From NCBI GenBank assembly GCA_000004695.1, contig CM000154.2, positions 3,360,001 through 3,424,000 of the forward strand: 64,000 nt of DNA. Direction: 5' to 3'. The translations under genes were made by a program, and so were the position numbers. Below the pieces are notes generated by a model, which was given only the letters and a program-made list of their open reading frames with translations, had not been told where the DNA came from and made no database searches. Below, piece by piece: positions 19,595 through 48,014 of the stretch. Position 1 is the stretch's first letter. The number at the start of each line of letters is the position of its first letter. Source of the stretch: Dictyostelium discoideum (taxonomy: Eukaryota).

Positions 19595-22500
19595 ATGAAA
19601 TTATTATTATTGGCGCTTATTTTAGTGCTCAGTAATATTAATTTAATAAGTGGTAATGGTTTAGTTTGGCCACATCCAAGATTACCATGTAGCCCATATG
19701 ACGAAAGGGGTTGTATAAATACACAAAAATGTAGTAGTACTGATTGTGATTCATTTAAACGTAGAATGTAAATATTAAATTTATTTTTTTATTTTAATTT
19801 TTTATATTTCCTAAAAAAAAAAACAATTTGTTTATTAATTTTTTTAAAAAATAATTATTTTTAGATATTTTGATGTTGCTTATAATACAGCATTTACAAT
19901 TTATCAACATACAATTTTTAAATACTATTCTGCAAATTATTATAAAGTTGAGTTAATAGTTGGAGGTAAAGTTTATTTTATTCATAAATTTGGTCAATTT
20001 AGAGGTGATGATTGTGAATTTGATGAAATTATTCCAGCTTTTTATAAGAAAGTTCAATTTTTAGATTTATCAACACCAATTAAAGCAACAATTCAATTTT
20101 CATTTGATTTTTCATCACATCCAAAACATGCAAACATTTATTATTCCTGTATAGATGTTTGGTTATTCGACTCTGCATATTACAATTATTGCCCAACTAA
20201 TAGTGGTGGTGGAAGTGGTAATAGTGGTGGTAGTTGGTCAAGTGGTGGAAGTGGTAATAGTGGTGGTGGTTGGTCAAGTGGTGGAAGTGGTAATAGTGGT
20301 GGTAGTTGGTCAAGTGGTAATAGTGGTGGTCATTCTACAGGTGATTGCCCAACAAGTAGCGGAGGTTGGACATCTGGTAGTCACTCAAGTGGATCATGGT
20401 CATCAGGTGGTGGTAGTGGTTCATCATCAGGAGGTCAATCAAGTGGATCTTGGTCTTCAGGAGGTGGTTCATCTTCAGGAGGTCATTCAAGTGGATCTTG
20501 GTCTTCAGGAGGTGGTTCATCTGCAGGAGGTGGTTCATCTTCAGGAAGTCATTCAAGTGGATCTTGGTCAAGTGGTGGCTCATCTTCAGGAGGTCAATCA
20601 AGTGGATCTTGGTCTTCAGGAGGTGGTTCATCTTCGGGAGGTCAATCAAGTGGATCTTGGTCTTCAGGAGGTGGTTCATCTTCAGGAAGTCATTCAAGTG
20701 GATCTTGGTCAAGTGGTGGCTCATCTTCAGGAAGTCATTCAAGTGGATCTTGGTCATCAGGTGGTAGCTCATCATCAAGTGGAAACAGCGGATGGATGAC
20801 TGCTTCTGGGGGTAATACTGGTGGAAATACTGGTGGAAATACTGGTGGAAATACCGGTGGCCAATCAAGTGGAAACAGCGGATGGATGACTGCTTCTGGT
20901 GGTAATACTGGTGGTAATACTGGTGGAAATACCGGTGGTCAATCAAGTGGAAACAGCGGATGGATGACTGCTTCTGGTGGTAATACTGGTGGAAATACTG
21001 GTGGAAATACCGGTGGCCAATCAAGTGGAAGCTCTTCATCAGGTGGCAATAGTGGTTGGTTAACATCTTCTGGCAGTAATAGTGGAAGTTCTTCGTCAGG
21101 TAGTAATAGTGGTTGGTTAACATCTTCTGGTAATAGTGTAAGTTCTTCATCAGGTGGTAATAGTGGCTGGTTAACATCTTCTGGTGGTAATAGCGGAGGC
21201 AATAGTGGAAGTTCTTCATCAGGTGGCAATAGTGGTTGGTTAACATCTTCAGGTGGTAACAGTGGTGGTTCCTCATCTTCAGGCAGCAATAGTGGTGCCT
21301 CATCTTCAGGTGACAATACTGGAGGTAATAGCGGTTGGTTGACATCATCTGGTGGTAATACTGGAGGTAATAGTGGTGCTGCAACCGGAGGAAATAGTGG
21401 AGGTAACAGTGGTGCCTCATCTTCAGGAGGTAATAGTGGCGGTGCTTCATCATCTGGTGGCAATACTGGAGGTAATAGCGGTTGGTTGACATCATCTGGT
21501 GGTAATACTGGAGGTAATAGTGGTGCTGCAACCGGAGGAAATAGTGGAGGTAACAGTGGTGCCTCATCTTCAGGAGGTAATAGTGGTTGGTTGACCGGCG
21601 GTGTTACTGGTGGCAATAGTGGAGGTGCTACTGGAGGTAATAGCGGTGGTGCTACTGGAGGTAATAGTGGAGGTGCTACTGGAGGAAATAGCGGTGGTGC
21701 TACTGGAGGCAATAGCGGCGGTGCTTCATCATCTGGTGGCAATAGTGGAGGTGCTACAGGAGGTAATAGCGGTGGTGCTACTGGAGGCAATAGCGGTGGT
21801 GCTACTGGAGGTAATAGCGGTGGTGCTACTGGAGGCAATAGTGGAGGTGCTACAGGTGGTAACAGTGGAGGTGCTACTGGAGGAAATAGCGGCGGTGCTT
21901 CATCATCTGGTGGCAATACTGGAGGTAATAGCGGCGGTGCTACTGGAGGTAATAGCGGCGGTGCTACTGGAGGCAATAGTGGAGGTGCTACAGGTGGTAA
22001 CAGTGGAGGTGCTACTGGAGGAAATAGTGGAGGTAACAGTGGTGCCTCATCTTCAGGAGGTAATAGCGGTTGGTTAACAGGTGGTGCTACTGGTGGTAAT
22101 AGTGGAGGTGCTACTGGAGGAAATAGTGGCGCTGCAACCGGAGGAAATAGTGGTGCTACTGGTGGTAATAGTGGAGGAAATAGTGGCGCTGCAACCGGAG
22201 GAAATATTGGAGGTGCTTCAAGTGGTTCCAGTTCTTCAGGAGGTAATAGCGGTTGGTTAACAGGAGGCGCTACTGGAGGTAATAGTGGCGGTGCTACTGG
22301 AGGTAATAGTGGCGGTGCTACTGGAGGTAATAGTGGCGGTGCTACTGGAGGTAATAGTGGAGGTGCTACTGGAGGTAATAGTGGAGGTGCTACTGGTGGT
22401 AATAGTGGTGCTGCAACTGGAGCAAATAGTGGTGCTGCAACTGGAGCAAATAGTGGCGCTGCAACTGGAGCAAATAGTGGTGCTGCAACTGGTGCAAATA

Positions 22501-23123
22501 GTGGAAACAATGCCGCTGTAACTGGTGCTGCAAATGGAAATAATGGCGCTGCAGCTGGAGCAAATAGTGGTGCCGCAACTGCTGCAAATAGTGGTGCCGC
22601 AACTGCTGCAAATAGTGGTGCCGCAACTGCTGCAAATAGAGGAAACAATGCCGCTGCAACTGGTGCTGCAAATGGAAATAATGGCGCTGCAGCTGGAGCA
22701 AATAGTGGTGCCGCAACTGCTGCAAATAGTGGTGCTGCAAATAGTGGTGCTGCAACTGCTGCAAATAGTGGTGCTGCAGCTGGAGCAAATAGTGGTGCTG
22801 CAACTGCTGCAAATAGTGGCGCTGCAACTGCTGCAAGTGGTGGAAATGGTGCAAGTGGTGCTGCAAACCCTGGTTCAATAGTAACTCCAAATGATCAAAA
22901 TGTTTCTCCATTATCGAACTCTGATGCTGCAGCAACCGCAGCATCAACTACAGGCAGAAACCCAAGAAATCCAACAAGTAGAGCTCCAACGGTCACACCA
23001 ACGCCAACCTCTTCAGCTGAAGAACCAGCTGCTGGTGGCGAAGATTCAAGTGCAATCTCCAAATATAGTATTCAATCATTTGGTATCTTTGTTTTATCAA
23101 TGATAATATATTTAGTAATTTAA
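19595..23123 (+). CDS. Secreted, probably GPI-anchored mucin-like glycoprotein. It has an N-terminal Cys-containing globular domain of about 190 aa followed by ~900 aa of Gly/Ser/Asn/Thr/Ala low-complexity repeats. 2 exons: 19595..19767 and 19865..23123, intron 19768..19864.
   Basis: Signal peptide MKLLLLALILVLSNINLISG. The donor is at|GTAAAT (phase 2) and the TTTTAG acceptor joins to frame 0, which stays open through ORF 20796..23123 (the listed M is internal). The C-terminus GEDSSAISKYSIQSFGIFVLSMIIYLVI is a hydrophobic GPI-type tail. The body consists of 24-nt GGNSGGAT units punctuated by GGNSGWLT. Confidence 0.65.
20200..22860 (+). repeat. Coding minisatellite: degenerate tandem 24-nt (8-aa GGNSGGAT / SSGGHSSGSW) units inside the mucin-like gene.
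   Basis: Visible periodicity of ggtggtaatagtggaggtgctact and related units. It generates spurious ORFs in the other five frames (20155..20799, 20335..21567, 20939..22648, 21601..22077, 22390..22947 and others). Confidence 0.85.
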
Positions 23124-23268
23124 AATAACTAATATTCTTTATATATATATGAAAATAAAATAATAATAATAAAAAAAATTATAAAAATAAAAAAATAAAT
23201 ACAAATCTAAAATTTTAAAATAATATATTTGTATTATTAATATTATTAATATTATTATTTTATTTTTA

Positions 23269-25061
23269 TCACCATTTAACTTTATTTAATAAATCTTGAA
23301 CAAATTGATCGCAATCACCTAAATAAACATAATCAAATTCGTGAGGTTGAGCAACCAACTCACGATTAATTAATATTTGAGGTATTTGTTTATCAACTAT
23401 ATCGGGTAATAAAGACACAGGTTGGACTTGTAATGATGAACCCATAACAATTAGTAAATCAATATCTTTTACATCTTTGAGTACACATTGATCGAATCGG
23501 TCAGGTAGATTTTCACCAAAGAAAACAATATCGGGTTTCATGAATGATTGACCATCATTACATTGTTGACACAAGGGTATTTCCATTTTCATGATGGTAT
23601 CACGAATGGTGGTACCATCGACAGTTAATTTACAAGTGATACAAGTTGCAGTTGAGAAACTACCATGACAATTGACCAATTTCTCTCTATCAATACCTGC
23701 AACATGTTCCAATGTATCGATGTTTTGAGTGTAATTTCTAAGTAGTTTACCTTTTTCATCCAAAAGTTTTATAAAGGAATGAGTTGGTGATGGTTTATGA
23801 TTACCAGGGAAGATCTCTTTTGCAAATTCAAAGAAAGGTAAAGGATTTGCACGTAAGTAATGAATATCAAACAATGATTCTGGTCTTGGTAAATTATATT
23901 TCTTTTCAATAGTTTCGTAAACGCCACCTTTTGATCTAAAATCTGGAATACCACATGAAACTGATACACCAGCACCAGTTATAATTACAATGTTTTTACT
24001 CGATTCAAATAATTGACAAACCTTTTCAAATGTTGATAAATCCAATGTTGCTATCTTTTTTCTATAGGGTCTTGCCAATGTATTATACTTTAAATAATTT
24101 AAAAATAAATTTACTGCCACTTTTTTCCTTGTTAAAAATGCCGTTATAATTTCCCATGCATCATCATCTTTCTCTAATTCCAATTTAAATCCAATATCTT
24201 TGGTAAACTCAATTGGATCAATCCCCAATGATTTCTTTTCTTGAATATGTTTATATATAAAACTACGTGCAACCAATTCAATATTTTCTTCTTCTTCTTC
24301 TCCTTCTTCTTCTTTTGAATTTCCAACATTATTTCCAATTCTTTGAATTTCATCATCAACTTCATCTTTATTATTATTTAAAATATCCAATAATATTGTT
24401 TCATTTATTTGTGTTTTTGTTGTTGTTGTTGTTGTTGTTGATGTTGATGTTGTTGTGGTTGATGAAGTGTTTGTTATTGAAGTGCTGGTTTCTGTATTTA
24501 CTAATTTTTTTTGAATTTTCTTAATTTCATTAATATTATCTAAATGATCTTCATCATCTAATAATTCATCTTCATTTTCATACCCATACTCATATTCACT
24601 ACTTTCATCATCTTCATAGTCATCACTTATTTGTTCTTCATCGGAATATCCTTCACCAACAAATTCATACTTTCTTCCTTTTTTATCCAATTTATTAATT
24701 AATTTAGTATCAATTTCAACATCTAAATCTTCATCTTCATCTACTTCTTGTAATTGTTCTAAACTATTTATAGATTTTCTAAAAATAAAAAAAATAAAAA
24801 AAAGTGGAAATAAAAAAAAATAAAAAAAAAAGGTTAGATTATTTTTTTTATTTTTTTATTTTTTTATTTTTTTTATTTTTTCATTTTCACTTTTTTTTTT
24901 TTTATTTTATTTTTTTTTTTTTTCACGAGGGATGATTTTTACAATTTTTTTAAGGGTGTATTATCAGAAGGGATTTCTTTATTTATTTTATTATTATTAT
25001 TTTTATTTTGATTATTTTGAATTTCGTTTAGTTCATTATTTTCTAAAGATCTCTTATTCAT
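23269..25061 (-). CDS. NAD-dependent protein deacetylase of the sirtuin (Sir2) family, class I/SIRT1-like, with an acidic and Thr-rich N-terminal extension. 2 exons: 24943..25061 and 23269..24778, intron 24779..24942. Predicted 542 aa.
   Basis: Catalytic core GAGVSVSCGIPDFRS...YTQNIDTLE...CHGSF...C.TC...CQQC (Zn-ribbon) ...VFFGE...LIVMGSSLQV. The listed M at 24690 is a TTG. The true ATG is at 25061 (MNKRSLENNELNEIQ...). The donor is tt|GTAAAA (phase 2) and the TTTTTAG acceptor restores the frame. The 542-aa size matches the Dictyostelium Sir2 paralogue of that length (possibly sir2D, unverified). Confidence 0.8.
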
Positions 25062-25128
25062 ATCTTATTCTTTTTCTTTTTTTATATCTGTTTATTTTTT
25101 TATTTTTATTTTGAAACCGAAAATTTTG

Positions 25129-25159
<31 letters not shown>

Positions 25160-25364
25160 AAAAATAAAAAAAAAAAAAAAAAAAAATAAAATAAAAAAAA
25201 AAAAACAATATTTGGGAAATTTATAATTTTTTTAAATGTTTATATTTAATCAAAATAATAATAAAATAAACAAATAAATTAAAAAGAAAAGAAAAAAAAA
25301 AAAAGAAAATAATTTTTAAAATTAATATTTTTCTTTTTTATTATTTTTTTTAATTAATTAATTA

Positions 25365-25366
25365 AT

Positions 25367-25441
<75 letters not shown>

Positions 25442-25465
25442 CTTATTTATTTATTTATTTATTTT
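25365..25465. repeat. (TTTA)n microsatellite of about 25 units in the sirtuin upstream region.
   Basis: Direct reading of the atttatttattt... run. Confidence 0.9.
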
Positions 25466-25551
25466 ATTTTATATTTTTAAATATAAATTAACATTGAAAT
25501 AAATTATAATTTTACAAACTGATTTCCAAATTTTTTTTTTTTTTTATTTAT

Positions 25552-28611
<3,060 letters not shown>

Positions 28612-29152
28612 AATTTTTTTTTTTTATTTTTAGAAAAAAAAAAAGTGATTAAAATTATTAAAAAAAAAAAAATTAAAAAAAATAATTAATATTTTTTTTT
28701 TTTTTTTTTTTTTAAAAATCAGAAATAATTGGGAACCTTGGAAAAAAAAATTCCTTAACACCTTTTAATAGATTTTATTTTGATTTCAAGACCAAATCAA
28801 AATAAAATAAATTAATTTATCTATTGACTTTTTTGGAAGTTGAAAAAGTGTTTTTTTTTTTTTTTTTTTAAATCAAAAATAGGAAATTTATGAAACCCTT
28901 TGTAAAAAAAAAATTTAAAAATAAAATTTATTCCTATAAAAAGATTTTGAGATTCCCTTTTTTTTTTTTATAACTATATATTTTTAAGAGTTTTTATAAT
29001 AATTATAATTATTATTAAATTTTTTATTAAAACTTTTTTTATTTTTTAAATTTAAATTTTTTTATTTTAAATTTAAATTAAATTTTTTTTAATTATTAAA
29101 TTTAAAATTTTTTTTTTTTTTTTTTTTATTTTTTCACTGAAAGATCATTAAA

Positions 29153-30022
29153 ATGAATCCATTAATTAAAACTGGACTTGAGTCCTTATTAAAAATTAAA
29201 ATTGACGAAAATCAAAATTCAAATTTAATTTCTTATAAAGATTATTCATCAATTATTCATGGTGTTAATCATGAACACAATCAAATAAATTTAAAAAATG
29301 AAGATAATCTCAATTCAAAAATGCTCATTGGTCCAGATAATATTACATTTTTCATAAGACATCTATCAGGAAGAACATATGAAATGAAATCAAATTTTAA
29401 ATGTTTAATTTCAGAAATTAAAAATTTATTTTTTAAAAATTTTGAAAATTCAATAAAACCAAGTGAAATGGTGTTAAATTATAACGGTCATAAATTAGAA
29501 AATAATAAACAACTTTGTGATTATAATATTAGAGATCATTCAACTTTAACTTTATATTTTGAAAATTCAACATATTCAATTGATAAAAATACTTTTGATC
29601 CCAGCTTCGATTATGATTTCACTTCAGTGGTCGATAAAGCAAACGCATTTGTTAGAGGTGGTCATTATTATCAAAGACCATGTGGATCATTTAGATTTGC
29701 ACTAAAAGTTTTGGGAAGATTTAATGAACCAATGGAAGAATGGTTAGGTCAAACAGGGAAGGAAGGAGGTTCGGAATGGGCAGTGTCATATCATAGTTCA
29801 TTAAATGAAGAAAATTGTCTTACAACACCAAGCTTTGAAGTGGCTAAAAAAAATGCCTTTACCTTCACATACAATGGTTTAAATTATTATCTACTATTCC
29901 AAAACAGAATTAATCCATCAACTTTTAAAAGAGAAGTAATTAAAAATGATGAGTATTGGAAATCACCAAACTCATCATCACAACATATAAGACCATACTC
30001 AATTTGTATTGGTAGAGTCTAA
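29153..30022 (+). CDS. Ubiquitin-like domain-containing protein (289 aa) with a C-terminal domain of unknown function.
   Basis: Residues ~60-140 (ITFFIRHLSGRTYEMKSNFKCLISEIKNLFFKNF...LNYNGHKLENNKQLCDYNIRDHSTLTLYF) have a ubiquitin beta-grasp pattern. The downstream block FVRGGHYYQRPCGSFRFALKV...EWAVSYHSS is uncharacterised. Confidence 0.45.
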   Translation: MNPLIKTGLESLLKIKIDENQNSNLISYKDYSSIIHGVNHEHNQINLKNEDNLNSKMLIGPDNITFFIRHLSGRTYEMKSNFKCLISEIKNLFFKNFENSIKPSEMVLNYNGHKLENNKQLCDYNIRDHSTLTLYFENSTYSIDKNTFDPSFDYDFTSVVDKANAFVRGGHYYQRPCGSFRFALKVLGRFNEPMEEWLGQTGKEGGSEWAVSYHSSLNEENCLTTPSFEVAKKNAFTFTYNGLNYYLLFQNRINPSTFKREVIKNDEYWKSPNSSSQHIRPYSICIGRV

Positions 30023-30165
30023 AAATGAATTATTATTATTCTTTTAAATTAAAATAATTAGTAAAAAAAAAAAAAATATATAAATAAATAAATAAAAAAG
30101 TATATTATCATTTTAGAAAATAATTATTATCAATCACAATTATATACATATTTATATATTTATTT

Positions 30166-33100
30166 TTAATCTTTCATTGAATTCATTGAAATTGACATTC
30201 TTTTCATTGATTTCTTCTCTTTTAATTTTCTATAATAAAAAATTGAAGATGCTGCTACTAATGTTGAACCTCCAACTACTGATACTACAACTATTACAGG
30301 TAATTTCCATTTATTTGAATCACAATTTGTATCTTCATCATCATCTTCTGGTCTTAATAATTGACCAAATGAAGGATCAATTATAGTTTTGCTTTTAAAA
30401 TGAGGTGATATAACACCTGTTCTTAATGTGAATTTTGAATTATCAATATCATCTGTTGAAGCACCAATGAAATTATAAATTTTACTATTATTCTGTTTAT
30501 CAATTTGTATTAATTCAGTTTGAGTAATTCTATCATCAATGATTGCACGTGATGCAAATTTACCAGTGAGAGAAGTTGAAAATGTTTGAATTTGATATTG
30601 ATTTTTTAAATATTTTGATTCTGTATCTATTGATTCACAATTATAAAATTCGGATGAATCAGTTTTTGATTTAAAAATTGTAACTAAATAATTTAATTCA
30701 CTTGAAAATTTCCAACCTAAAATAGTAGCTTGATATTTAATTGAATTTTCTGGCATGTATAATGTTTCACCAGCAAATTCGATTTCACCTTGATCAGAGA
30801 AATAATGAATTATCAATTCAAAAATTGTAGAATTATCACCTTGTTTATTAAAACTACCACTATAGAAATTTGATGAGTTTGATAAACCTGTTCTATTTGT
30901 CCATTCAATTTCTGATAATGATAAAAATCTAACTGGATTATCAGTAATATCCATTTCAACTAAATGAGTGATTGCAATTGTATAATTAATTTTTGAACCT
31001 GGGAATGTAGTTGAACCATTTTCATCAATAATTGGTGGTTCAGGTTGTGGTGGGTATTTTTCACTATCGATTGAACAATCTTGACCTCTCCAACCTTGAT
31101 AACATATACATTTTGGTAATTTCTTATTACAATCACCATTTCCTGAACAATTGTTTAATAGCTCACAATCATATAATGTTGAATAAACTAAACAATCATT
31201 CTCTCCACTGAGATCTGCGGAAATAACTTTTACATTTAAACCTTTTCTTTCGCTTGGTAATGGTATTGTTGATTGGTATTTACATTTTATAGTTGTTTGA
31301 TCGACGATTGAAACATTTTCACATTCTTGATCTTCAATGAAAACACTAGTATAATCAATTTTGAAATTTAAAACTGAAATTAAAAGATCAATTGGTTCAT
31401 TTAAATAAACTTGTGATAATACTTTTAATACAATTGGAGATTCATACTCTGATTGTAAAGAGTTTGATATGAGAGATGATTTTGAAATTGCAATAATTTC
31501 AAATTTTCCATAACCTGGTTGAATATCACATTCATATTCTGTACCCACAATCAAGGCTAAACAATTCAATAAGAATCCAATTGGAGAATTAATTGATGGA
31601 GTTTTAAAAGTATATTGAAATTGTAATGCTACAGCGTTATTGTTTGAATCTTCTTCAAATAAATAATTACCACTAATTGTTATTTTACTTGTACTATTAA
31701 ATGAAGATGCTATTGGTTTAATACTGAATAGAATTGGATAAATATCTAATAATAAAGAATTTGATTTCTGTGAATCAACAATAACATAGATATCACCATT
31801 TCTTGATTTACTTGTTAATAAATTAAATTCAATTCTATTACTATCGATTGATTTTATAGTTGGTTCATAACTTCCAAAAATTAGAGTTGTCAAAGTTTTA
31901 CTTAAATTTCTTCCAATGATTACAACTAAATCTTCAACTTGTGTAACTGATAATAACTCTGGTTTAAAGAATGAATAGATTACTTTATTTGATTTTAATT
32001 TATTTTGATTTTCAATTGCAATTGTATGATTTAACCCAAATCCACCGAAAATATGTAAAACAATTTCTTCTGGACTATTGATTGTATAATCTTGATCTTC
32101 TATCAATTCTATATTATTATCCCTTGATACTATTATTGGTTGTTCAAAATAACGACCGGTAATTGTCACATCACTAGTTTGTACTGTATCTAATAATTGA
32201 TTTGAAATTGATGAAATCCAAGGTTTTAATGCAACAGGAATACTTGGATAAATTTTATCACCTTGAGTAATTGTTAGAGTACCACTAATAACATTCAATG
32301 GTAAATTTGAACATCTAATTAATTCTTTACTACCTAAACAATAGGATGATATATTAACACTATCTAAAATAATTGATAAGGTTGTTGCATCTGGTAAATC
32401 TTTACCATTAATTAAAAGATCAGCTTTATCTTGATTAGTGTATAGGTCAGAATTAAAGTATTCTATTTGATATTGTGGTGTAATTGATGAAATACCGTCA
32501 ACAATAATCTCTAAATTATAAGTGTCTGGTGATAATGGTGGTGATAAACAACTAATTTTTTCATGATCTTCAATTATAGCTACATTTTTACAACTGACAT
32601 TAACATTATCTGATCCTCCAGTAATTAAAACTTGAATTAAGCTACTATCAATTCCAAAGTTTATACCAGAGATTGATAAAACTCCACCCACCTGAGCGAT
32701 ATTATTCGAATAAATTATTGATGGCTCTGCATATTTATAAATAGCGGTTGTACTTTGATTTGAAACTTTTAATGCAACAGGTATTGTACCTGAACCAACT
32801 GGTAATGTACAAGTATAACTCTTGTATGGAACTAAAACAGTGAGCAAACTACATGACTCGAATGTCAATAATGTATTTGAAAGTGTATTTGAAAAACTAC
32901 TACCTGTTATTGTGACAATTCCACCAGTAGTTGGTACTCTATTCATAGTAATTATTGTTGGTTCATTATATTTTACAAATTGAGAATTTGCAGTTGTATT
33001 TAATGTATCCACTCTAACAACAATTTCATATGGACCATCAAAACCAGCAGCAATTTGAACATCCAATTCACCATTGATATAATCTCTTTCAAAATCCACT

Positions 33101-34872
33101 GATTTTCCATTGAAAAATACTGTAATTTTACTAAAAATCGTACCATAGTTATCTATACCAATATCAACTTTACCACCAATTGTATCAACTGTGTTTACTT
33201 TATTTGGAGTTGTAAAAGATGGAGGTGTACCACCATATTCTGTCAATACACCAGTATAAGAAGATAGTGTCATATTTGTTAACTCTAATGTATCTAAATA
33301 AATTACAAATCTTGTATTCTCAGTCCAAGTTGCTTTTACAGCATCACCTCCAATAATTGATTTATACTTTAAAATACATGGTTTACCTTGATTAGGACCT
33401 GTGATATAAACAAAATTTCCATTACCCACATATTTTGCATTTTGCCATAATATCCATCTTGCATTACCATTTTGAACTGGTAATGTATTATTTGCAAACT
33501 GTATCAATGTATCATCATAAAGTGATCCCATATGACCAATTTGACCATCAATTCTTAAATTTGATGCATAATCAATCATTGAAGTTTCAAATGTTGCCCA
33601 AGCTAAAAAACCACTATAATAATAACCATTATAAACTATTTTTAAAAAATAATTAATTATTAATAAATAATATAAAAAAAAACTTTTTTTTTTTTTTTTT
33701 TTACTTACAAATTGCAGCTTTAAATGAAATAAAAGTATTTGTTGAAACTGTAATTGTAATTGGTAAAAATTTATTACCAGTTAAACTTTCTGATAAAACA
33801 CAAGTAAAAACTTCATGTGCTTGTGTGATAATAATATTATTACATGAAACTCCTGGTGCACCTAATGTTACTGTGATTTCTGAAGCAATAGTTCCAAAAT
33901 TTGCACCTGTAATACTTGCAGTACTACCTTTTGAAAATACTGGATAAACACCACCAATCATTGGTAGTTCATAATTCCAATAAATTGGAAAATTATTCTT
34001 TTTATTTTTACTATCTTTAATTGCAACTGTGAATTTGCCTTGACCTGGTGGAATTGCACATTCAACACTACCAGTATCGATTTGTTTTATAGTTGTACAT
34101 GAAAAAGTTTTTGAAGAATCTGCTCTATTTGTGAAAATTATTGATAATTGACTATCGATTGTGAATGAATTTAAATGTTTGATAATTACAGTTGAACCAG
34201 TGGTTGGTGATGGAGGAATATGTGGTTCTTCATAACCACCAAATTCACAAACATATTTATCTAATAATGCCAATGGACCATTGTTATTAATGTAAGGAAC
34301 TGTCACAGAACCAGAGGTATGCAACCAATGTTCATCTTTAATTAAATTTGGTTCTAAACTTCCAAATATACAAAAACTATAACATTTATCAAAATAAAGA
34401 TTATACATAAAATCATCTTCTTCTGGTGAACCTTTTGAATATTTCCAAACACCTGTTTTTTCTGCATCACTGCCTGATATCCACATACCAGATGTTGTAA
34501 AATTATTTGTTTTACCCCAATTCCATTCTTCTTCACTTGTATATGTTACTAAATAGCTAATTATTTAAAATTAAATTTTAATAATTTTATTAATTTTTTA
34601 AAATAATAAAAAAAAAAATACATGGAAAAAAAAAAAAAAAAAAGAAATAAATTAATTATTTACCCTTTAGTTCCATTATAAGAAAAACTGTTACAATAAT
34701 CGGTAGCATTTGGTCCAGTTATTTGTACGCCATAGGCAAGTTTATTATCAAAAACTTGGTAATAATGTTGGTTTTGAGGGTTTTTGGTGGGGTTTATTGG
34801 TTGTGGTGGTGTCAAACAAAATACACAACCAATAAAAATAAAAAAAAAAATTAAATGAAAAATATTTTTCAT
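30166..34872 (-). CDS. Large type I transmembrane receptor of the Dictyostelium Tgr/Tiger-like architecture: signal peptide, C-type lectin-like domain, multiple IPT/TIG (Ig-like) domains, EGF-like module, TM helix and a short cytoplasmic tail. 3 exons: 34664..34872, 33709..34556 and 30166..33635 (introns 34557..34663 and 33636..33708).
   Basis: Exon 1 signal peptide MKNIFHLIFFFIFIGCVFC, ending at gg|GTAAAT. Exon 2 carries lectin-like WNWGKTNNFTTSGMWISGSDAEKTGVWKYSKGSPEEDDF...C.F and ends at t|GTAAGT. Exon 3 carries repeated IPT/TIG-type blocks (ITG.NFG, SC.NV...EDHEKISC, TGRYF), EGF-like CSGNGDCNKKLPKCICYQGWRGQDCS, a TM segment LPVIVVVSVVGGSTLVAASSIFYY and a basic tail RKLKEKKSMKR. All splice phases are consistent. 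Exon 1 coordinates follow the ORF track; my own base indexing there is 1 nt off, see noticed_but_rejected. Confidence 0.7.
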
Positions 34873-36461
34873 TATTTATTTATATTTTTTTTTTTTATTT
34901 TTATTTCTTTATTTCTTTATTTTTATTTTAATTTTTTTTTTTTATTTTTTTATGAAATGAATAAAAAAAAATCATTTGGTTTCGAGAACCTAGATGAAAA
35001 AAAAAAAAAAAATAAAAAAATAAAAAATAAATAAAATTTAAACAAAATAAAAATCTGGTATTTTATTTTTAGTAGTTGGCAAGTCAGGTCGGAAGCAGTA
35101 AAAAAGATTTTTTTTTTTGATTTTTTTTTTTTTAAAAAATTGATTTTTTTTTTTTTTTTAAACCAAATCTACTTTTTATCTCATTGCAATCTATTTTAAA
35201 AAAAAAAATGAAAATTCAAATATTAAGATGCCACAGAATAATTAATAAATGTCTACACCAAAATTTAATGGAAAAAAAAAAAAAAAAAAAAAAAAATTAA
35301 ATAAATTAATTATTTGACATGTCTCTTAAAATTACCTGACCAATACTAATTTAGATTAAAAAAAAAAAAAATAAAAAAAAAAATAAATACCTATTTTTTA
35401 CGGTTTTGTAAAAAAATTTTTTTTTTTTATTCAAATTCCAAAACCCATAAAAAAAATAAAAAAAAAAAAAATAAAAAAAAAAAAAAATTATAAAAGATAT
35501 TTTTAATTTATAATATTTTAGAAGTTCCAATACCGCCTGGTGCTTGATATGCATTTTATTTTTTTTTTTTTTTTTTTTTATTTTTTTTTATTTTTTTTTT
35601 TAATGATCTTTTAATTTTGAGAAAAAAAAAAAAAATTTTTTTTTAAAATCTTTTTTTAAATATCTGTATCATATTCCATGAAATTTAAAAAGGGAAATTA
35701 AAAAAAACCACCAATATGTAAATCAAGGAAATATTCCATTTCTTCACTTTTATTTTTTTTATTTTTTTTATTTTTTTTTTTTTTTTTTAATCATTTTTTC
35801 ACTAACTTTTCTTTAAAAAAAAAATGGTAAATTATTCAATTATGGTTCAACTTTAGCAACTGAAAACAAAAAACCTATAAAATAACCTAAAAATCATAAA
35901 AGAAAATGATATAATCATCAAAATAATTAAATTTAATTTAATTAAATTTATTAAAATAAAATCACAACATACAATAAAATTCAATTTTTTATAATATTAT
36001 TTTAATTACCATCCACAATCAATTATCAATCTAATATCTCTAAAAACGAGTTTTTTTTTTTTTTTTTTTTTTTATTTTGATTTTTTTTTTTAGGATCTTG
36101 TGTGTGAGACAGTAAGTATTTTTTTACATGAGAGGTTGTTTTATTTCATTATTTTTTCTATTATTTGTTCTTATACAATTTTGTACACACACCCACTTTA
36201 TAATATTAACTTTTTACAATGTGTTCTTTTTTAGTCTTTTACTTGTATTTCTGTAATTAACCAAAGGTTTTTTTTTTTTTTTTTATTACATTTTTTTTTT
36301 TTTTTTTAAACATTTTTTTTTTTTTACTATAAATAATTTTTTTTTTTTTTTATTATTCATTCAACAAAATTTAATTTAATCAATTAAAGCAAAAAAAAAA
36401 AAAAAATTATTTAATTTTATTTATTTATTTATTTTAAAAAAAAAAAAGAAAAAAAAAGAAA

Positions 36462-36677
36462 ATGTTATTTGAAACTTTAAAAAGTCTTTCTCAACAAAAT
36501 GGTGGCCAATTCTCTGATGAACAATCATTTGAAAGTCCAATTTCATCATCATTTAATGGTCATTCAATGCCATTCGGTAGTCCATCATCAACAATGAGTT
36601 CATCCTATAAGGGTAATACCAATTCCTCAACCAAATCAAGCAGTGCCTTCTTTTCAAGACCATTTTATTCTGAATAA
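36462..36677 (+). CDS. Small Ser-rich ORF (71 aa), possibly a short protein-coding gene.
   Basis: ATG-initiated. Its codon usage (tcc, ggc, agc) is less AT-biased than the surrounding intergenic DNA. No similarity recognised. Confidence 0.25.
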   Translation: MLFETLKSLSQQNGGQFSDEQSFESPISSSFNGHSMPFGSPSSTMSSSYKGNTNSSTKSSSAFFSRPFYSE

Positions 36678-36877
36678 TTAATTTACTTAATTATTTTTAT
36701 TATTTTTTTAGAAAAAAAAAAAAATAATAATATACATGTACTACTACAATTTCTTCCTTTTTTATTTATTAAAAAACAAAAAAACAATTTAAAATAAAAG
36801 ATTTATTTTAATCACACACAAACAAATAATAATATCTATTTTTTTTTTTTTTTTTTCTCCAATATTAATATTTTATT

Positions 36878-39854
36878 TTATTTTTTACTTAATTGTTTTG
36901 CCATTTGAGAGAATGCTCTTGAACTCATCTCCATTTCAGATGTTTTTAATTCCAACTCTTTTAATTGATCACCTCTTTTCTCTAAAGCTTCTTTAGCTTT
37001 ATTTAATAAATCTGAAATTCCTGCTATTTGTTGTGAATGTGATGGTGTTGGAATTTTATTTCCATCCTCTGAGAAAATTCTATCCAAATTTGATTCAGTA
37101 GTTTGTTGAGATGGTTTTGATGAAAAGAAACTTGTAAATTTACTCTTACCTTTTGGTAATGGTGGCATTGGAATATTATCAACAAATAATGTTGGATATT
37201 GATTTAATTGATGACCACCATTATTCGAAATACAATATAATAAACTACTATTATTATTATCAATATATAAATAACCATTACTATATGATGGTGTAATTAT
37301 AAATTTAATTATATTATTATTTAATGAAGAAGAGGAAGAAGAGGAAGAAGAACATAATGTTGGTAATCTAATTATTGGTAATAAACTATTTGATTTTAAT
37401 TTATCTAAATTTATAGTATTATATAATTCAATTGATGAAGTTGAAGCATCTAATGAAATTAATACAGGTTTACCATCTGATTGAGTTGATAAATGTACTA
37501 AACCATCAATAAAATATTTATTTGAACCGTCATGTTTATTTAATCTCTTGTGTTGAATTATTTTATTACTACCAAATGAAACACTATAAATTGAGATCTC
37601 TTTGATTGTTGATACTATTAATGATATTTCTTCAATCATTGATTTAAATTCTTCACCACCACCACCACCACCACCACTGCCATTGCCACTACCGTTAATT
37701 CCTGTTGAATTTAATAAATCATTATTAAATATTTTTGAAAGTGTTGATATATCATTTAAATTTTCAATTGATTCAGCATCATCATGATTAATTGAACCAA
37801 AGAATAAGAATTGAATTGGATCACCTCTTTTATTTGTAAATAATAATGAACCAACTTGAACACCACTACCACTATTTGATAATTTAAATGATGATATGAT
37901 TTTCATAGTTTGTAAATCTAATACCATAATATTTGCATCACTTGTTCCTAAATAAACTATACTACTATCAATATCACTATTACGAATTGGATAAAAACAT
38001 AATGATATTGATGTTATTGCTGCTGATATTGTTGAATCTCCTATTACTGTTGAAGGTGTAGTTGTTGATACATTATTTGATGAAGGTGTTGTTGATATTG
38101 ATGTTGTTGTTGTTGTTGTTGTTGTTGTTGAACAATTACCAAAACTAAAAACTGCTAATGTATAAACTACTTGACTTGAAGGTATAGTTGGAACTCCATC
38201 AACCCCAACTTCTTTATTATTTACAATTGATACTATATAATGATAAACATTACCTAAATCCGTACCAATTAATATCCTAGTTGAATAACTACTTTTATAT
38301 GGATTCAAAGTAATAGATGTTATATTCTCGCCATTTCCCATTATGATTTTACCCATTAATTTAAAAACATCAAAAACTGCATTCGGTAATTGTTTATCTT
38401 CTTTAATCCCATCTTCTTCTTGTTGTTGATTTTGTTCTGTATTATTATTATTACTATTATTATTATTATTATTACTATTATTATTATAAATTAATGTATC
38501 AATTCTTTTTGAAAAATCAGAAATATGATAAATTAATAATTCTGAACTACTTGTGGAGATTGTTAATAATAAATTTGATACTGAGAATGAAATTGTAATT
38601 ATTTCAATTGTTTTTGTTGTTGTTGTTACTGAATTATTATTATTATTATTATTTATATTTAAAGTTCCAAGGTATAAAATATTCTTTGGATCACTTGAAT
38701 TCCAAAATTCTATAGTATTATCATAATGAACAGTTATCATTAATTGTTGAAATGGTAATGATGATACACCTGGTAATTTATTTAATGTTAAAGTTTCTGG
38801 ACCACCATTAATTGAACTTTTCATATTATTATTTGATTCAAATAATTGATAAATTAAATCAATGGTTTTTGAATCACATTGATAACTTTTCATTAATTTA
38901 ACTTTATTATTACTACTATTACAACTGAATGATTTTAAATTAATTTCATCACATGATATTGGATTTGAAAAGAATAATGTTTTTTGATCAATTTTTAATT
39001 CAAGTAATCTATTTGAACCATTTGATTCAATTAATAATAAAGATTCAACAAAACCATTATTATTATAGTAAGGTAATGTGGTAATTGGACAGTATGATAG
39101 TAAATTTGAAAATACTTGAACTGATGATAAATGATTTACATTCTTAAAATTATCACCTTTAATAAGTATTAATGATTTTATATTATCAATATTATTTACA
39201 CCTTTAAATAATATTAATTTCTTATTATTGGTATATAATATTTCTAATTGATCAATTGGATAATATTGTTGTTGTTGTGATTGTTGAGATTGTTGAGATT
39301 GTTGTTGTTGTTGTGATTTATAAATTAAAATTGAAGTTGAATTTTGAGTTGAATATTTTATTAAATGAATTTCACCATTTAAAAAGCCTGCTACAAATTT
39401 TGAACCATTTCTAGACCAACAAATCGATGTACAATAACCACATTTAATGAATGATTCAATTCGTTTTTCAATTTTTTTAGATTCTAAATTAAATATTAAT
39501 ATTAAACCATTGTTATAACCAACTAATAATTGATTTGCATTGATTGGATTAACTTTTAAACATGATGGTAATGCTATTGATTCATTACATTTAACGTCAA
39601 ATTCAGGTTGTTGCTGCTGTGAAGTTTGACCATTATGTTCATAATCATAAAGTTGGTATGATGATAAAAAGTTATTATGTATATTATAAGTTTGAATCAT
39701 TGAATCCTCAGTTGAAAAGAATAAATGCTTTAATCCATTGGATTGACATATTGATGTAATTCTAGTCTTATATAATAATATATTATTTAATTTCATTCTA
39801 TCATAATCCCATTTTTCAATTGATGAATCCGTAACAATTATAATGAATGGCTAA

Positions 39855-39945
<91 letters not shown>

Positions 39946-40525
39946 GAATATTTTTTTTTTTTTTTTTTTGTATTTATAACAATAAAAAAATATACTTACT
40001 GAATTTATTATAAAGTAAATCTTTTTAATCATTGATTTTGTATGAGCTTTTAAAGGAATTTCATAACCATTTTTACCAAATCTAAAATGGAATAATAATA
40101 ATATAATAAAATTAGTATAGGTTTTTTTTTTTTTTTTATTAAATTAAAGTGTGAATTGTTGTTGATAATATTTACATTTTAAAAGAACCATCATTAAACC
40201 CAATTGCACATAAATTCAAAACATTATCAAAGGCTAATGCACTTTTTGTCCCATTAATACCATTTATAAAAATCTATAAAAGAAGAAAAGTTGAAAAAAG
40301 TAAAAATGAAAAAAAATAAAGGAAAAAGTGTGAATAATTTTTTGTAAGTTTCCTTTTTTTTATTTTTTTTTTTTTTATTTTTTAATAATGACAAACATTT
40401 TTTCCAAATTCGTTGATGTCTTGTTTGTTTGGGGTTTTATTTGGAGTTGCTGGTTTTTTGAAAATATCTTCTTCGTCTTCATCTTCATCTTTAATAAATT
40501 TTTTAATTTTATTAAAAATTGACAT
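36878..40525 (-). CDS. Tomosyn/Lgl (lethal giant larvae, Sro7) family protein: WD40 beta-propeller body with a C-terminal R-SNARE-like motif. 4 exons: 40397..40525, 40176..40273, 40000..40081 and 36878..39850 (introns 40274..40396, 40082..40175 and 39851..39999).
   Basis: C-terminus DQLKELELKTSEMEMSSRAFSQMAKQL is a VAMP-type coiled-coil motif as in tomosyn. The spliced N-terminus ...INGTKSALAFDNVLNLCAIGFNDGSFKIFGKNGYEI matches the Lgl/tomosyn N-terminus (SALAFDPV..L.AIGT..G..K..G.PGVE). Donors are GTTTGT (exon 1, non-canonical), GTAAAT and GTAAGT. The last intron contains an (ATT)33 array. The exon-1 assignment (MSIFNKIKKFIKDEDEDEED...) is the least certain part. Confidence 0.7.
39851..39952. 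repeat. (ATT)n microsatellite of about 33 units inside tomosyn-like intron 3.
   Basis: Direct reading. Confidence 0.9.
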
Positions 40526-40779
40526 TTTTGTTTTTTATTAAAAATAGTTGTATTTCCAAAAAAATAAAAATAAAAAATAAAAAAAAAAACTATAAAAAAA
40601 AAAAAAAAAAATAAAAAATAAAAAAAAATGAAAAAAAAAAAATAAAAATAAAAAATGGGAACAGTTGTCAATTTCAAATAAAAAAAAAAATAAAAAAAAT
40701 AAAAAAAATTATAATTTTAGCTCTACCAAATAAAAATAAAAAAAAAATAAAATAAAAAAAGTTTTAAAATGACCCTCTA

Positions 40780-40925
40780 GTTCGATACTTGCTATGAATA
40801 ATCGATAGATAACATAAATCTATGATTATTATCAATAGTAACACACTTTCAATTCATTCATTTTAGTCGATAAAATAGTGAGAATCATTTTGCGCTGACG
40901 TATATAATTTTACTTTGAATTTTAA
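40780..40925. promoter_or_regulatory. Bidirectional promoter region between the divergent tomosyn-like (-) and med24 (+) genes. It contains a CRE-like TGACGTA and an adjacent TATATAA.
   Basis: A 150-bp segment of mixed base composition (GACCCTCTAGTTCGATACTTGC...GCGCTGACGTATATAATTTTAC) within a 780-bp A/T-rich spacer. TGACGT followed by TATA is a classic core promoter arrangement. Confidence 0.3.
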
Positions 40926-41081
40926 AAAAAAAAAAATAAAAAAAAAAAAAAAAAAATGAAAATAAAAATAAAAATAAAATAAAATAAAATTTTTTTATAA
41001 TTTTATGGATTAAATAATAAAAAAAATTTTATGTATGTGTTCCTCATAATATTTAAATAATATATCACCTTTACAAAAATT

Positions 41082-41116
<35 letters not shown>

Positions 41117-41304
41117 AGTTAATTTTTTTTTAAATTTTTTTTTTTTTTTTTGTTTTTTAAATTTTTTTTTTTTTAATTTTTTTATTTTTTTTATTTTTTT
41201 TTTTAAATTTTTTATTTTTTTTTTTTTTTCATATTTTGTTGAACCTCTTTAGAGAAAAAAAAAAAAAAAAATTAAAAAAATAAAAATCAACTCCATCTCA
41301 TCCG

Positions 41305-48014
<6,710 letters not shown>

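Follow-up and report, generated by a model that had tools for sequence, protein, structure and literature searches.

Does a large gene of Dictyostelium discoideum, which joins a lectin module to a row of IPT/TIG domains in one membrane protein, encode a further polymorphic receptor for allorecognition, or a surface receptor of a different kind? The gene occupies positions 30166..34872 on the minus strand of a stretch of 64,000 nucleotides (the window; positions 3,360,001 to 3,424,000 of contig CM000154.2 in assembly GCA_000004695.1). A reading made from the letters of the window (the sequence-only reading) had taken the product for a Tgr/Tiger-like receptor that forms a cell-cell recognition locus together with a mucin-like gene nearby. 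Our analysis largely refutes this interpretation. The product, UniProt entry Q54GV4, is a predicted type I membrane protein with two C-type lectin-like domains (CTLDs), and the evidence tilts, on balance, towards a function as a calcium-dependent glycan-binding surface receptor or adhesin.

The gene and its two lectin domains

Three open reading frames (ORFs) on the minus strand (34872..34660, 34486..33701 and 33579..30166) are joined via two GT..AG introns to a single gene (Table 1). Intron 1 is 107 nucleotides long (GTAAAT...TTAG) and intron 2 is 73 nucleotides long (GTAAGT...ATAG); each contains about 94% A+T, and the G+C content of the whole window, about 20%, is in keeping with Dictyostelium. 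Every residue of the 1508-amino-acid product is equal to the D. discoideum AX4 protein XP_635965.1 (EAL62466.1, Q54GV4), which is named 'EGF-like domain-containing protein' in the databases. The window is therefore AX4 sequence, and the three-exon gene proposed in the sequence-only reading was confirmed and is the reference annotation of AX4. The splicing is supported independently, since the CTLD family profile runs on across intron 1 (exon 1 corresponds to profile positions 1-35 and exon 2 to 36-151) and since the residues flanking both exon junctions align in homologues of four genera. The chance that the three ORFs are separate genes, or that the gene model is an annotation artefact, is negligible: the joined coding sequence is in frame, the introns are canonical, the domain profiles are unbroken over both junctions, and the full-length protein is annotated in AX4 as well as in several other Dictyostelium assemblies. 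In addition, the knockout arms published for DDB_G0289907, quite probably the same gene (see below), extend to +2424 (PMC7190356). Judged by sequence, this is one three-exon gene which is already annotated.

The presence of a lectin-like module at the N-terminus had been predicted previously, but the N-terminal fragment as a single sequence stays below the gathering cut-off of Pfam Lectin_C (16.3 versus 22.6 bits, E = 0.017). Family profiles settle the assignment of this first domain (CTLD1) nevertheless. A profile of nine dictyostelid CTLD1 sequences obtained 37 matches in the PDB, 36 of them to CTLDs (best E = 5.5e-5). The exhaustive search with CTLD1 of 1.8 billion representative proteins yielded 2291 matches at E <= 0.001, and eight of ten relatives sampled from this search were themselves above the Lectin_C cut-off, with values down to E = 8e-90. 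When CTLD1 was compared with non-dictyostelid CTLDs using hhalign, the two aligned over the full length with a probability of 100% (E = 1e-49). A mixed profile of 32 sequences gave 197 PDB matches at E <= 0.001, and all of the best 60 were CTLD proteins; it matches PLA2R, DEC-205, the mannose receptor and DC-SIGN/DC-SIGNR, single carbohydrate recognition domains being found with E values of about 4e-17 over profile positions 7-139 of 152. Homology of CTLD1 to true CTLDs can thus be regarded as firmly supported by the profile matches. The lectin claim stands in this form, whereas the direct Lectin_C match is sub-threshold. A lack of significant Lectin_C or TIG matches had been named beforehand as an argument against the proposed architecture; taken literally, Lectin_C comes close to such a lack, whereas TIG is strongly significant.

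A second domain of this type (CTLD2) lies between the Ig-like modules of the protein. The CTLD2 stretch has no Pfam match, a CTLD2 profile searched against the PDB sequences was likewise without a match, and hhalign with a shallow alignment gave a probability of only 22%. With a deeper alignment, the first 84 columns of CTLD2 matched CTLD1 with a probability of 95% (E = 3e-8) and CTLDs from outside with 97.9% (E = 6e-13). Its best structural matches include natural killer (NK) receptors and snake-venom CTLDs. According to profile comparison and structure, CTLD2 has a C-type lectin-like fold, which is visible only by these two approaches. The domain contains neither EPN/QPD nor WND, and its one cysteine (C439) is not conserved; CTLD2 has the fold but probably lacks the sugar site. 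The arrangement with CTLD1 at about 30-180 and CTLD2 at about 340-490 is repeated in dozens of proteins of the search hit set, and the named ones come mostly from Tieghemostelium, Cavenderia, Polysphondylium or Synstelium.

The complete domain order is signal peptide, CTLD1, two Ig-like modules, CTLD2, eight Ig-like/TIG modules, EGF, ComC supersandwich domain, transmembrane (TM) helix and a basic tail of 21 amino acids. The signal peptide and the single TM helix, both of which had been proposed, coincide with the two strongest hydropathy peaks, and the tail is indeed short, basic and Ser-rich. All 20 N-glycosylation sequons (N-x-S/T) are located N-terminal to the TM helix. At least five IPT/TIG repeats had been expected, and Pfam TIG matched the whole protein in six stretches (E = 1.2e-20). 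The protein was also cut at its conserved 'P-x-I' linkers, which yields ten modules of Ig size, and each module was scanned by itself against Pfam. Four modules were above the TIG cut-off, three were sub-threshold, one gave a weak Ig_TgrO1 match and two had no match of the TIG/Ig type. Module 2 passes the TIG cut-off alone, and module 1 is the one with only the weak Ig_TgrO1 match (18.1 versus 27.9 bits); within the stalk (n=8) three modules pass, three are sub-threshold and two have no match.

An AlphaFold2 (AF2) model was available for amino acids 22-520; it is based on a 10-sequence alignment and its quality is mediocre (predicted local distance difference test, pLDDT, 65). In this model modules 1 and 2 are confident beta-sandwiches, and Foldseek matched them to Ig/IPT pairs including plexin IPT domains. 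The Foldseek search with the whole model returned only Ig/TIG pairs and is uninformative for the fold of CTLD1. The EGF module of AX4 lies just below every Pfam EGF cut-off (EGF_Teneurin 22.9 versus 24.3 bits), but all six cysteines are conserved without exception in the family, and in D. purpureum the orthologue exceeds the cut-off for EGF_Teneurin and EGF_2; the EGF claim thus holds for the family and narrowly fails the threshold in AX4 itself. The ComC supersandwich domain (ComC_SSD) was detected when the C-terminal fragment was scanned alone (34 bits, cut-off 24) and reaches 30-46 bits in orthologues. Neither Lectin_C nor ComC_SSD is listed in the Pfam scan of the whole protein; both surfaced only in the fragment scans.

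The putative sugar site and the proposed function of Q54GV4

In animal C-type lectins the sugar-binding Ca2+ is held by residues of the EPN / Glu / WND type, and the EPN form is associated with ligands of the mannose/glucose/N-acetylglucosamine (GlcNAc) type. In CTLD1, Glu138-Pro139-Asn140 (window 34354..34346), Glu145, Tyr158-x-Asn160-Asn161 and Cys173-Glu174 fall into the CTLD columns EPN, loop Glu, WND and CE, respectively. These residues are invariant in 11 homologues over Dictyostelium, Cavenderia and Tieghemostelium, and in the 32-sequence alignment P139 is invariant while E138, E145 and E174 are each at least 90% conserved. The equivalents of the cysteines C1 and C4 (C60 and C173) are also invariant in the 11 homologues, and the C2 and C3 positions are not occupied by cysteine. 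Instead, an invariant C128-x3-C132 (DKCYSFC, window 34384..34370, minus strand) precedes the EPN loop, where the C2-C3 disulfide would be canonical. The C-x3-C element is also present in an aligned Diplonema sequence (GCLQAYCGW). Judged by these alignments, it may be a mark of a distinct, non-animal CTLD subfamily.

From these features the following mode of action can be proposed. CTLD1 would be placed farthest from the membrane, on top of about ten Ig-like domains that form the stalk, and would bind glycans of the mannose/glucose/GlcNAc type via a Ca2+ held by Glu138-Pro139-Asn140, Glu145 and Asn160-Asn161. CTLD2, having the fold and lacking the site, would more likely be structural or protein-binding. 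With a tail of 21 residues in which no signalling module can be recognised, the protein would serve in adhesion or in capturing particles, or would pass a signal on via a partner protein. No endocytic motif was noticed in the tail, for which no motif search was made.

Known lectin receptors and relatives resemble Q54GV4 to different extents. Like the animal C-type lectin receptors (DC-SIGN/DC-SIGNR, mannose receptor, DEC-205, PLA2R), it is membrane-anchored, it too has more than one CTLD, and its CTLD1 keeps the EPN, the loop Glu and the C1-C4 cysteines. It differs from them in having Y-x-N-N for WND, C-x3-C for the C2-C3 disulfide and a stalk consisting of TIG domains, not of coiled coil or CTLD arrays. 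The closest CTLD1 relatives outside Dictyostelia belong to a non-animal CTLD subfamily (GYLATITS...EPN...WND...EYGG type) found in Diplonema, Gefionella, cyanobacteria and PEP-CTERM proteins; these proteins have other architectures (tandem CTLD arrays, PEP-CTERM anchors), and none has the TIG-EGF-ComC_SSD-TM body. One related protein, of 1830 amino acids, is 45% identical over 80% of the query and contains CTLD1, two Ig modules, CTLD2, TIG stalk, EGF, membrane-proximal region, TM helix and tail in the same order. It has about 11 EGF/teneurin-type repeats compared with one in Q54GV4, and ComC_SSD does not appear in its whole-protein Pfam scan.

The combination of domains is not new. A dictyostelid IPT/TIG-EGF-CTLD family with the same domain vocabulary as Q54GV4 has been listed, with 9 members in D. 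discoideum compared with 35-50 in other groups (PMC4334915); judged by matching descriptions, Q54GV4 probably belongs to this orthogroup, OG5_153020. Five D. discoideum proteins have been reported to contain both IPT/TIG and EGF-like domains (PMC4931340), and a review from 2024 counts three C-type lectin receptor orthologues in D. discoideum, which are still unstudied (PMC11552500). The gene is an annotated member of a conserved, recorded dictyostelid family, and the lectin domain is not the novel addition that it had seemed to be.

A literature search for Q54GV4 gave no match. The gene is quite probably DDB_G0289907, as suggested by matching descriptions and by the closeness of the identifier to that of sir2D (DDB_G0289967), which lies in the same window; the published descriptions correspond to what NCBI calls Q54GV4 and its paralogue Q55F41. 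DDB_G0289907 was among the genes selected by a screen aimed at strong, early induction during dedifferentiation combined with minimal expression in development (PMC7190356). If the link holds, selection for induction upon refeeding and scant developmental expression would argue for a role in the feeding stage, for instance in binding bacteria or the substratum, rather than in developmental self-recognition. The supplements of PMC4931340 do not mention DDB_G0289907, and those of PMC7190356 list the knockout strain only.

Several points weigh against a glycan receptor. The WND motif is changed to Y-x-N-N, with Asn as the fifth Ca2+ ligand where Asp is canonical, and the canonical C2-C3 disulfide is replaced by the C-x3-C motif. 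In the AF2 model the core of CTLD1 is confident, but the long-loop region, where the site would lie, has a pLDDT of 27-56. Many CTLDs bind proteins and not sugars. Furthermore, the link to DDB_G0289907 consists of matching descriptions and the neighbourhood of identifiers, not of sequence. The criterion of the screen was stated for the gene set and not per gene, and the DDB_G0289907 knockout was without phenotype in one assay, PCNA induction during dedifferentiation (PMC7190356).

Some of these points would suit a different receptor, one similar to ComC, whose CTLDs bind proteins as those of NK receptors and snake-venom proteins do and which acts in communication or adhesion, in cell-cell or cell-matrix signalling of the multicellular stage. 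At the level of domains, Q54GV4 has the supersandwich domain, the EGF module, the signal and TM layout and the short tail in common with ComC. Kibler and colleagues reportedly found in 2003 that developing comC mutants have a defect in communication between cells. A protein ligand would also be consistent with the lack of a Ca2+/sugar motif in CTLD2 and its structural matches, and with the non-canonical features of CTLD1 (Asn in place of the Asp of WND, no C2-C3 disulfide). We consider such a receptor possible but unlikely. EPN, E145 and N160/N161 are strictly conserved in Dictyostelia and common to EPN...WND CTLDs outside, and it is difficult to account for this conservation unless a metal/sugar site exists. 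The probable gene DDB_G0289907 was picked for minimal developmental expression, which does not fit a function in the multicellular stage, and comC has been reported to be restricted to group 4 (PMC4931340), whereas the Q54GV4 family spans all groups. Word-index homology searches with amino acids 1171-1508, the part that contains the EGF and ComC domains, gave no match, not even to the source protein or to its 88-97% orthologues, which the full-length query had detected; negative outcomes of this kind of search in a low-complexity, AT-biased proteome are thus not readable as absence.

Glycan-binding by Q54GV4 thus remains the reading that we prefer. To our knowledge, glycan-recognising phagocytic or adhesion receptors have been assumed in Dictyostelium and never identified. 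An article from 2018 calls it unclear how Dictyostelium recognises bacteria, typical phagocytic receptors not having been found (PMC5969738). It is tempting to place Q54GV4 and its paralogue Q55F41 here, as the receptors by which social amoebae recognise glycans in phagocytosis or adhesion, with a working EPN calcium/sugar site on a TIG stalk; at present, we regard this more specific assignment, drawn from the sequences, as speculative and rather doubtful. If it were true, the Q54GV4/Q55F41 family would be the amoebozoan counterpart of lectins of the mannose-receptor/DC-SIGN type. Three findings speak for a binding experiment: the EPN-type site at the tip does not vary within Dictyostelia, the stalk conceals another CTLD, and constraint on the protein is highest in the two CTLDs.

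The Tgr family, selection and polymorphism

Signal peptide, IPT/TIG repeats, one TM helix and a short tail are what Q54GV4 has in common with TgrB1, TgrC1 and the tgr family. This layout, the weak Ig_TgrO1 match of module 1 and the high variability of the nearby Gly/Ser-rich gene among strains speak for a polymorphic allorecognition receptor of the Tgr/Tiger type, which we nevertheless consider very improbable. Signal peptide, TIG domains and TM helix are not Tgr-specific, because this layout is common to many non-Tgr proteins; 55 IPT/TIG proteins have been counted in D. discoideum (PMC4931340). Tgr proteins have been described as consisting of signal peptide, IPT/Ig E-set repeats and TM helix, with EGF and lectin domains nowhere mentioned (bioRxiv 10.1101/2025.10.22.684067), whereas Q54GV4 has two CTLDs, EGF and ComC_SSD in addition. 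Only the generic part of the proposed Tgr-like architecture is therefore left. The names given by NCBI and UniProt are not tgr, and none of the 17 matches obtained at E <= 0.001 in a homology search with Q54GV4 is named tgr or Tiger.

The evolutionary behaviour of the gene is also different. The tgr family comprises about 63 genes, evolves by birth-and-death, is often arranged in head-to-head pairs and shows extreme polymorphism in tgrB1/C1/B2 (bioRxiv 10.1101/2025.10.22.684067); the gene for Q54GV4, in contrast, is a conserved singleton under purifying selection. Related proteins of D. citrinum, D. dimigraforme and D. firmibasis are 84-88% identical to Q54GV4, those encoded by two D. purpureum genes 44-47% and those of Cavenderia and Tieghemostelium about 33-34%. 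As far as sequence similarity tells, orthologues or co-orthologues are recognisable across Dictyostelia, a conservation unlike the birth-and-death pattern.

Nei-Gojobori statistics were calculated for the locus from three other assemblies and D. firmibasis versus AX4. The whole gene is under purifying selection, which is strongest on the two CTLDs, and in no domain does the ratio of nonsynonymous to synonymous substitution (dN/dS, Table 1) exceed 0.7. Compared with the three other assemblies, the proportions of nonsynonymous (pN) and synonymous (pS) differences are 0.010-0.011 and 0.07-0.11, respectively. At the protein level, AX4 differs by 2.3-2.6% of the amino acids from two other assemblies designated 'D. 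discoideum'. Although this value seemed high beside the published mean nucleotide diversity of 0.003, we rejected it as a signal of polymorphism: the paralogue on another contig shows a protein difference of 4.8% in the same assemblies and every flanking gene has a pS of 0.04-0.28, so that the value is not special to this gene. The excess of ectodomain polymorphism expected for an allorecognition receptor was thus not found; dN/dS is 0.10-0.18, and divergence is equal to or below that of the flanking genes and the paralogue. Divergence of the two other assemblies from AX4 seems to extend beyond this locus. In the region of about 20000..45000, all genes have a pS of about 0.04-0.2 versus these two assemblies, more than 10 times the mean nucleotide diversity of D. 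discoideum, which is 0.003 (bioRxiv 10.1101/2025.10.22.684067). A further assembly, with the locus-tag prefix ACTFIT, hardly differs from AX4. The dN/dS comparison with D. purpureum was discarded, as just 43% of the coding sequence was covered and substitutions were near saturation.

Taken together, domain content, names, selection and gene arrangement (see below) argue against membership of Q54GV4 in the Tgr family. The gene is not a strong lead for work on allorecognition, and its remaining value is modest.

Table 1. Positions of the gene for Q54GV4, its predicted domains and selected neighbouring genes in the window
Feature	Position	Strand	dN/dS	Basis and remarks
Whole gene	exons 34872..34664, 34556..33709, 33635..30166	-	0.10-0.18	coding sequence 4527 nt, 1508 aa, 0 internal stops
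Predicted signal peptide, aa 1-19 (MKNIFHLIFFFIFIGCVFC)	34816..34872	-		top hydropathy peak (residues 2-4); cleavage site approximate
CTLD1, aa 30-177	34235..34785	-	0.04-0.10	spans intron 1; family profiles; Lectin_C sub-threshold
Two Ig-like modules (TIG1, TIG2), aa 181-351	33713..34225	-	0.29-0.69 (few substitutions)	AF2 model, Foldseek, Pfam
CTLD2, aa 352-490	33223..33712	-	0-0.13	spans intron 2; hhalign, structure; cryptic, cysteine-poor
Stalk of eight Ig-like/TIG-size modules (modules 3-10), aa 491-1175	31168..33222	-	0.10-0.18	Pfam TIG
EGF-like module, aa 1176-1208	31069..31167	-		six cysteines; EGF_Teneurin near cut-off
ComC supersandwich domain (Pfam PF22933), aa ~1223-1443	30364..31026	-		fragment scan
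Predicted TM helix, aa 1464-1487, and 21-aa basic Ser-rich cytoplasmic tail (RKLKEKKSMKRMSISMNSMKD)	30169..30303	-		second hydropathy peak (1464-1467)
Ubiquitin-like gene	29153..30022	+		289 aa; central ubiquitin fold, Pfam ubiquitin 36.8 bits; C-terminal half unassigned
1023-codon ORF	25555..28623	-		sub-threshold ankyrin-repeat match only
sir2D (DDB_G0289967), SIR2-domain ORF	23272..24855	-		primer match
Repetitive Gly/Ser-rich mucin-like gene	19595..23123	+		short signal-peptide exon, then 1091-codon ORF

Neighbouring genes

The gene arrangement does not resemble that of tgr pairs. A head-to-head TIG partner is missing, as the upstream neighbour (36881..39850, minus strand) is encoded on the same strand as the gene for Q54GV4, and the neighbours are of an intracellular type. 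The product of the upstream gene has N-terminal WD40/beta-propeller matches and a sub-threshold C-terminal match to synaptobrevin (R-SNARE-like), a predicted layout like that of tomosyn/Lgl-type proteins. A Med24-like gene is likewise among the flanking genes. Within the 64-kb window, the CTLD family profile found no second family member.

The two neighbours that had been pointed out earlier are present: a ubiquitin-like gene adjoins the gene for Q54GV4, with a Pfam match to ubiquitin, and the repetitive mucin-like gene has Gly/Ser-rich repeats and a hydrophobic C-terminus. What they had been taken to mean was not borne out. Three genes (the ubiquitin-like gene, the 1023-aa gene and sir2D) separate the gene for Q54GV4 from the mucin-like gene. 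D. firmibasis has the genes in this order too, although a counterpart of the 1023-aa gene was not called there; in D. purpureum the order is not preserved, and the linkage with the mucin-like gene is absent. The locus thus shows no sign of being an allorecognition locus.

The mucin-like gene is the most variable one of the region, with 74-78% nucleotide identity and about 380 gap positions in other assemblies, compared with 92-97% identity for its neighbours. Its product consists of 30% Gly, 23% Ser, 11.5% Ala, 10% Asn and 8% Thr, contains many nested tandem repeats and ends in a hydrophobic C-terminus that resembles a glycosylphosphatidylinositol (GPI) signal. The 1023-codon ORF is fast-evolving (pN/pS 0.46-0.75). 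The ubiquitin-like gene has the highest synonymous divergence of the neighbourhood (pS 0.18-0.28), with a pN/pS of 0.14-0.21.

The SIR2-domain gene of the window can be identified as sir2D, since the published reverse cloning primer for Sir2D (PMC6475656) matches exactly at 23269..23290, at the stop codon of the SIR2 ORF. The forward primer has no match in the window within one mismatch, so that the annotated start of sir2D is probably on an exon of its own further upstream, or else does not have the sequence of the primer.

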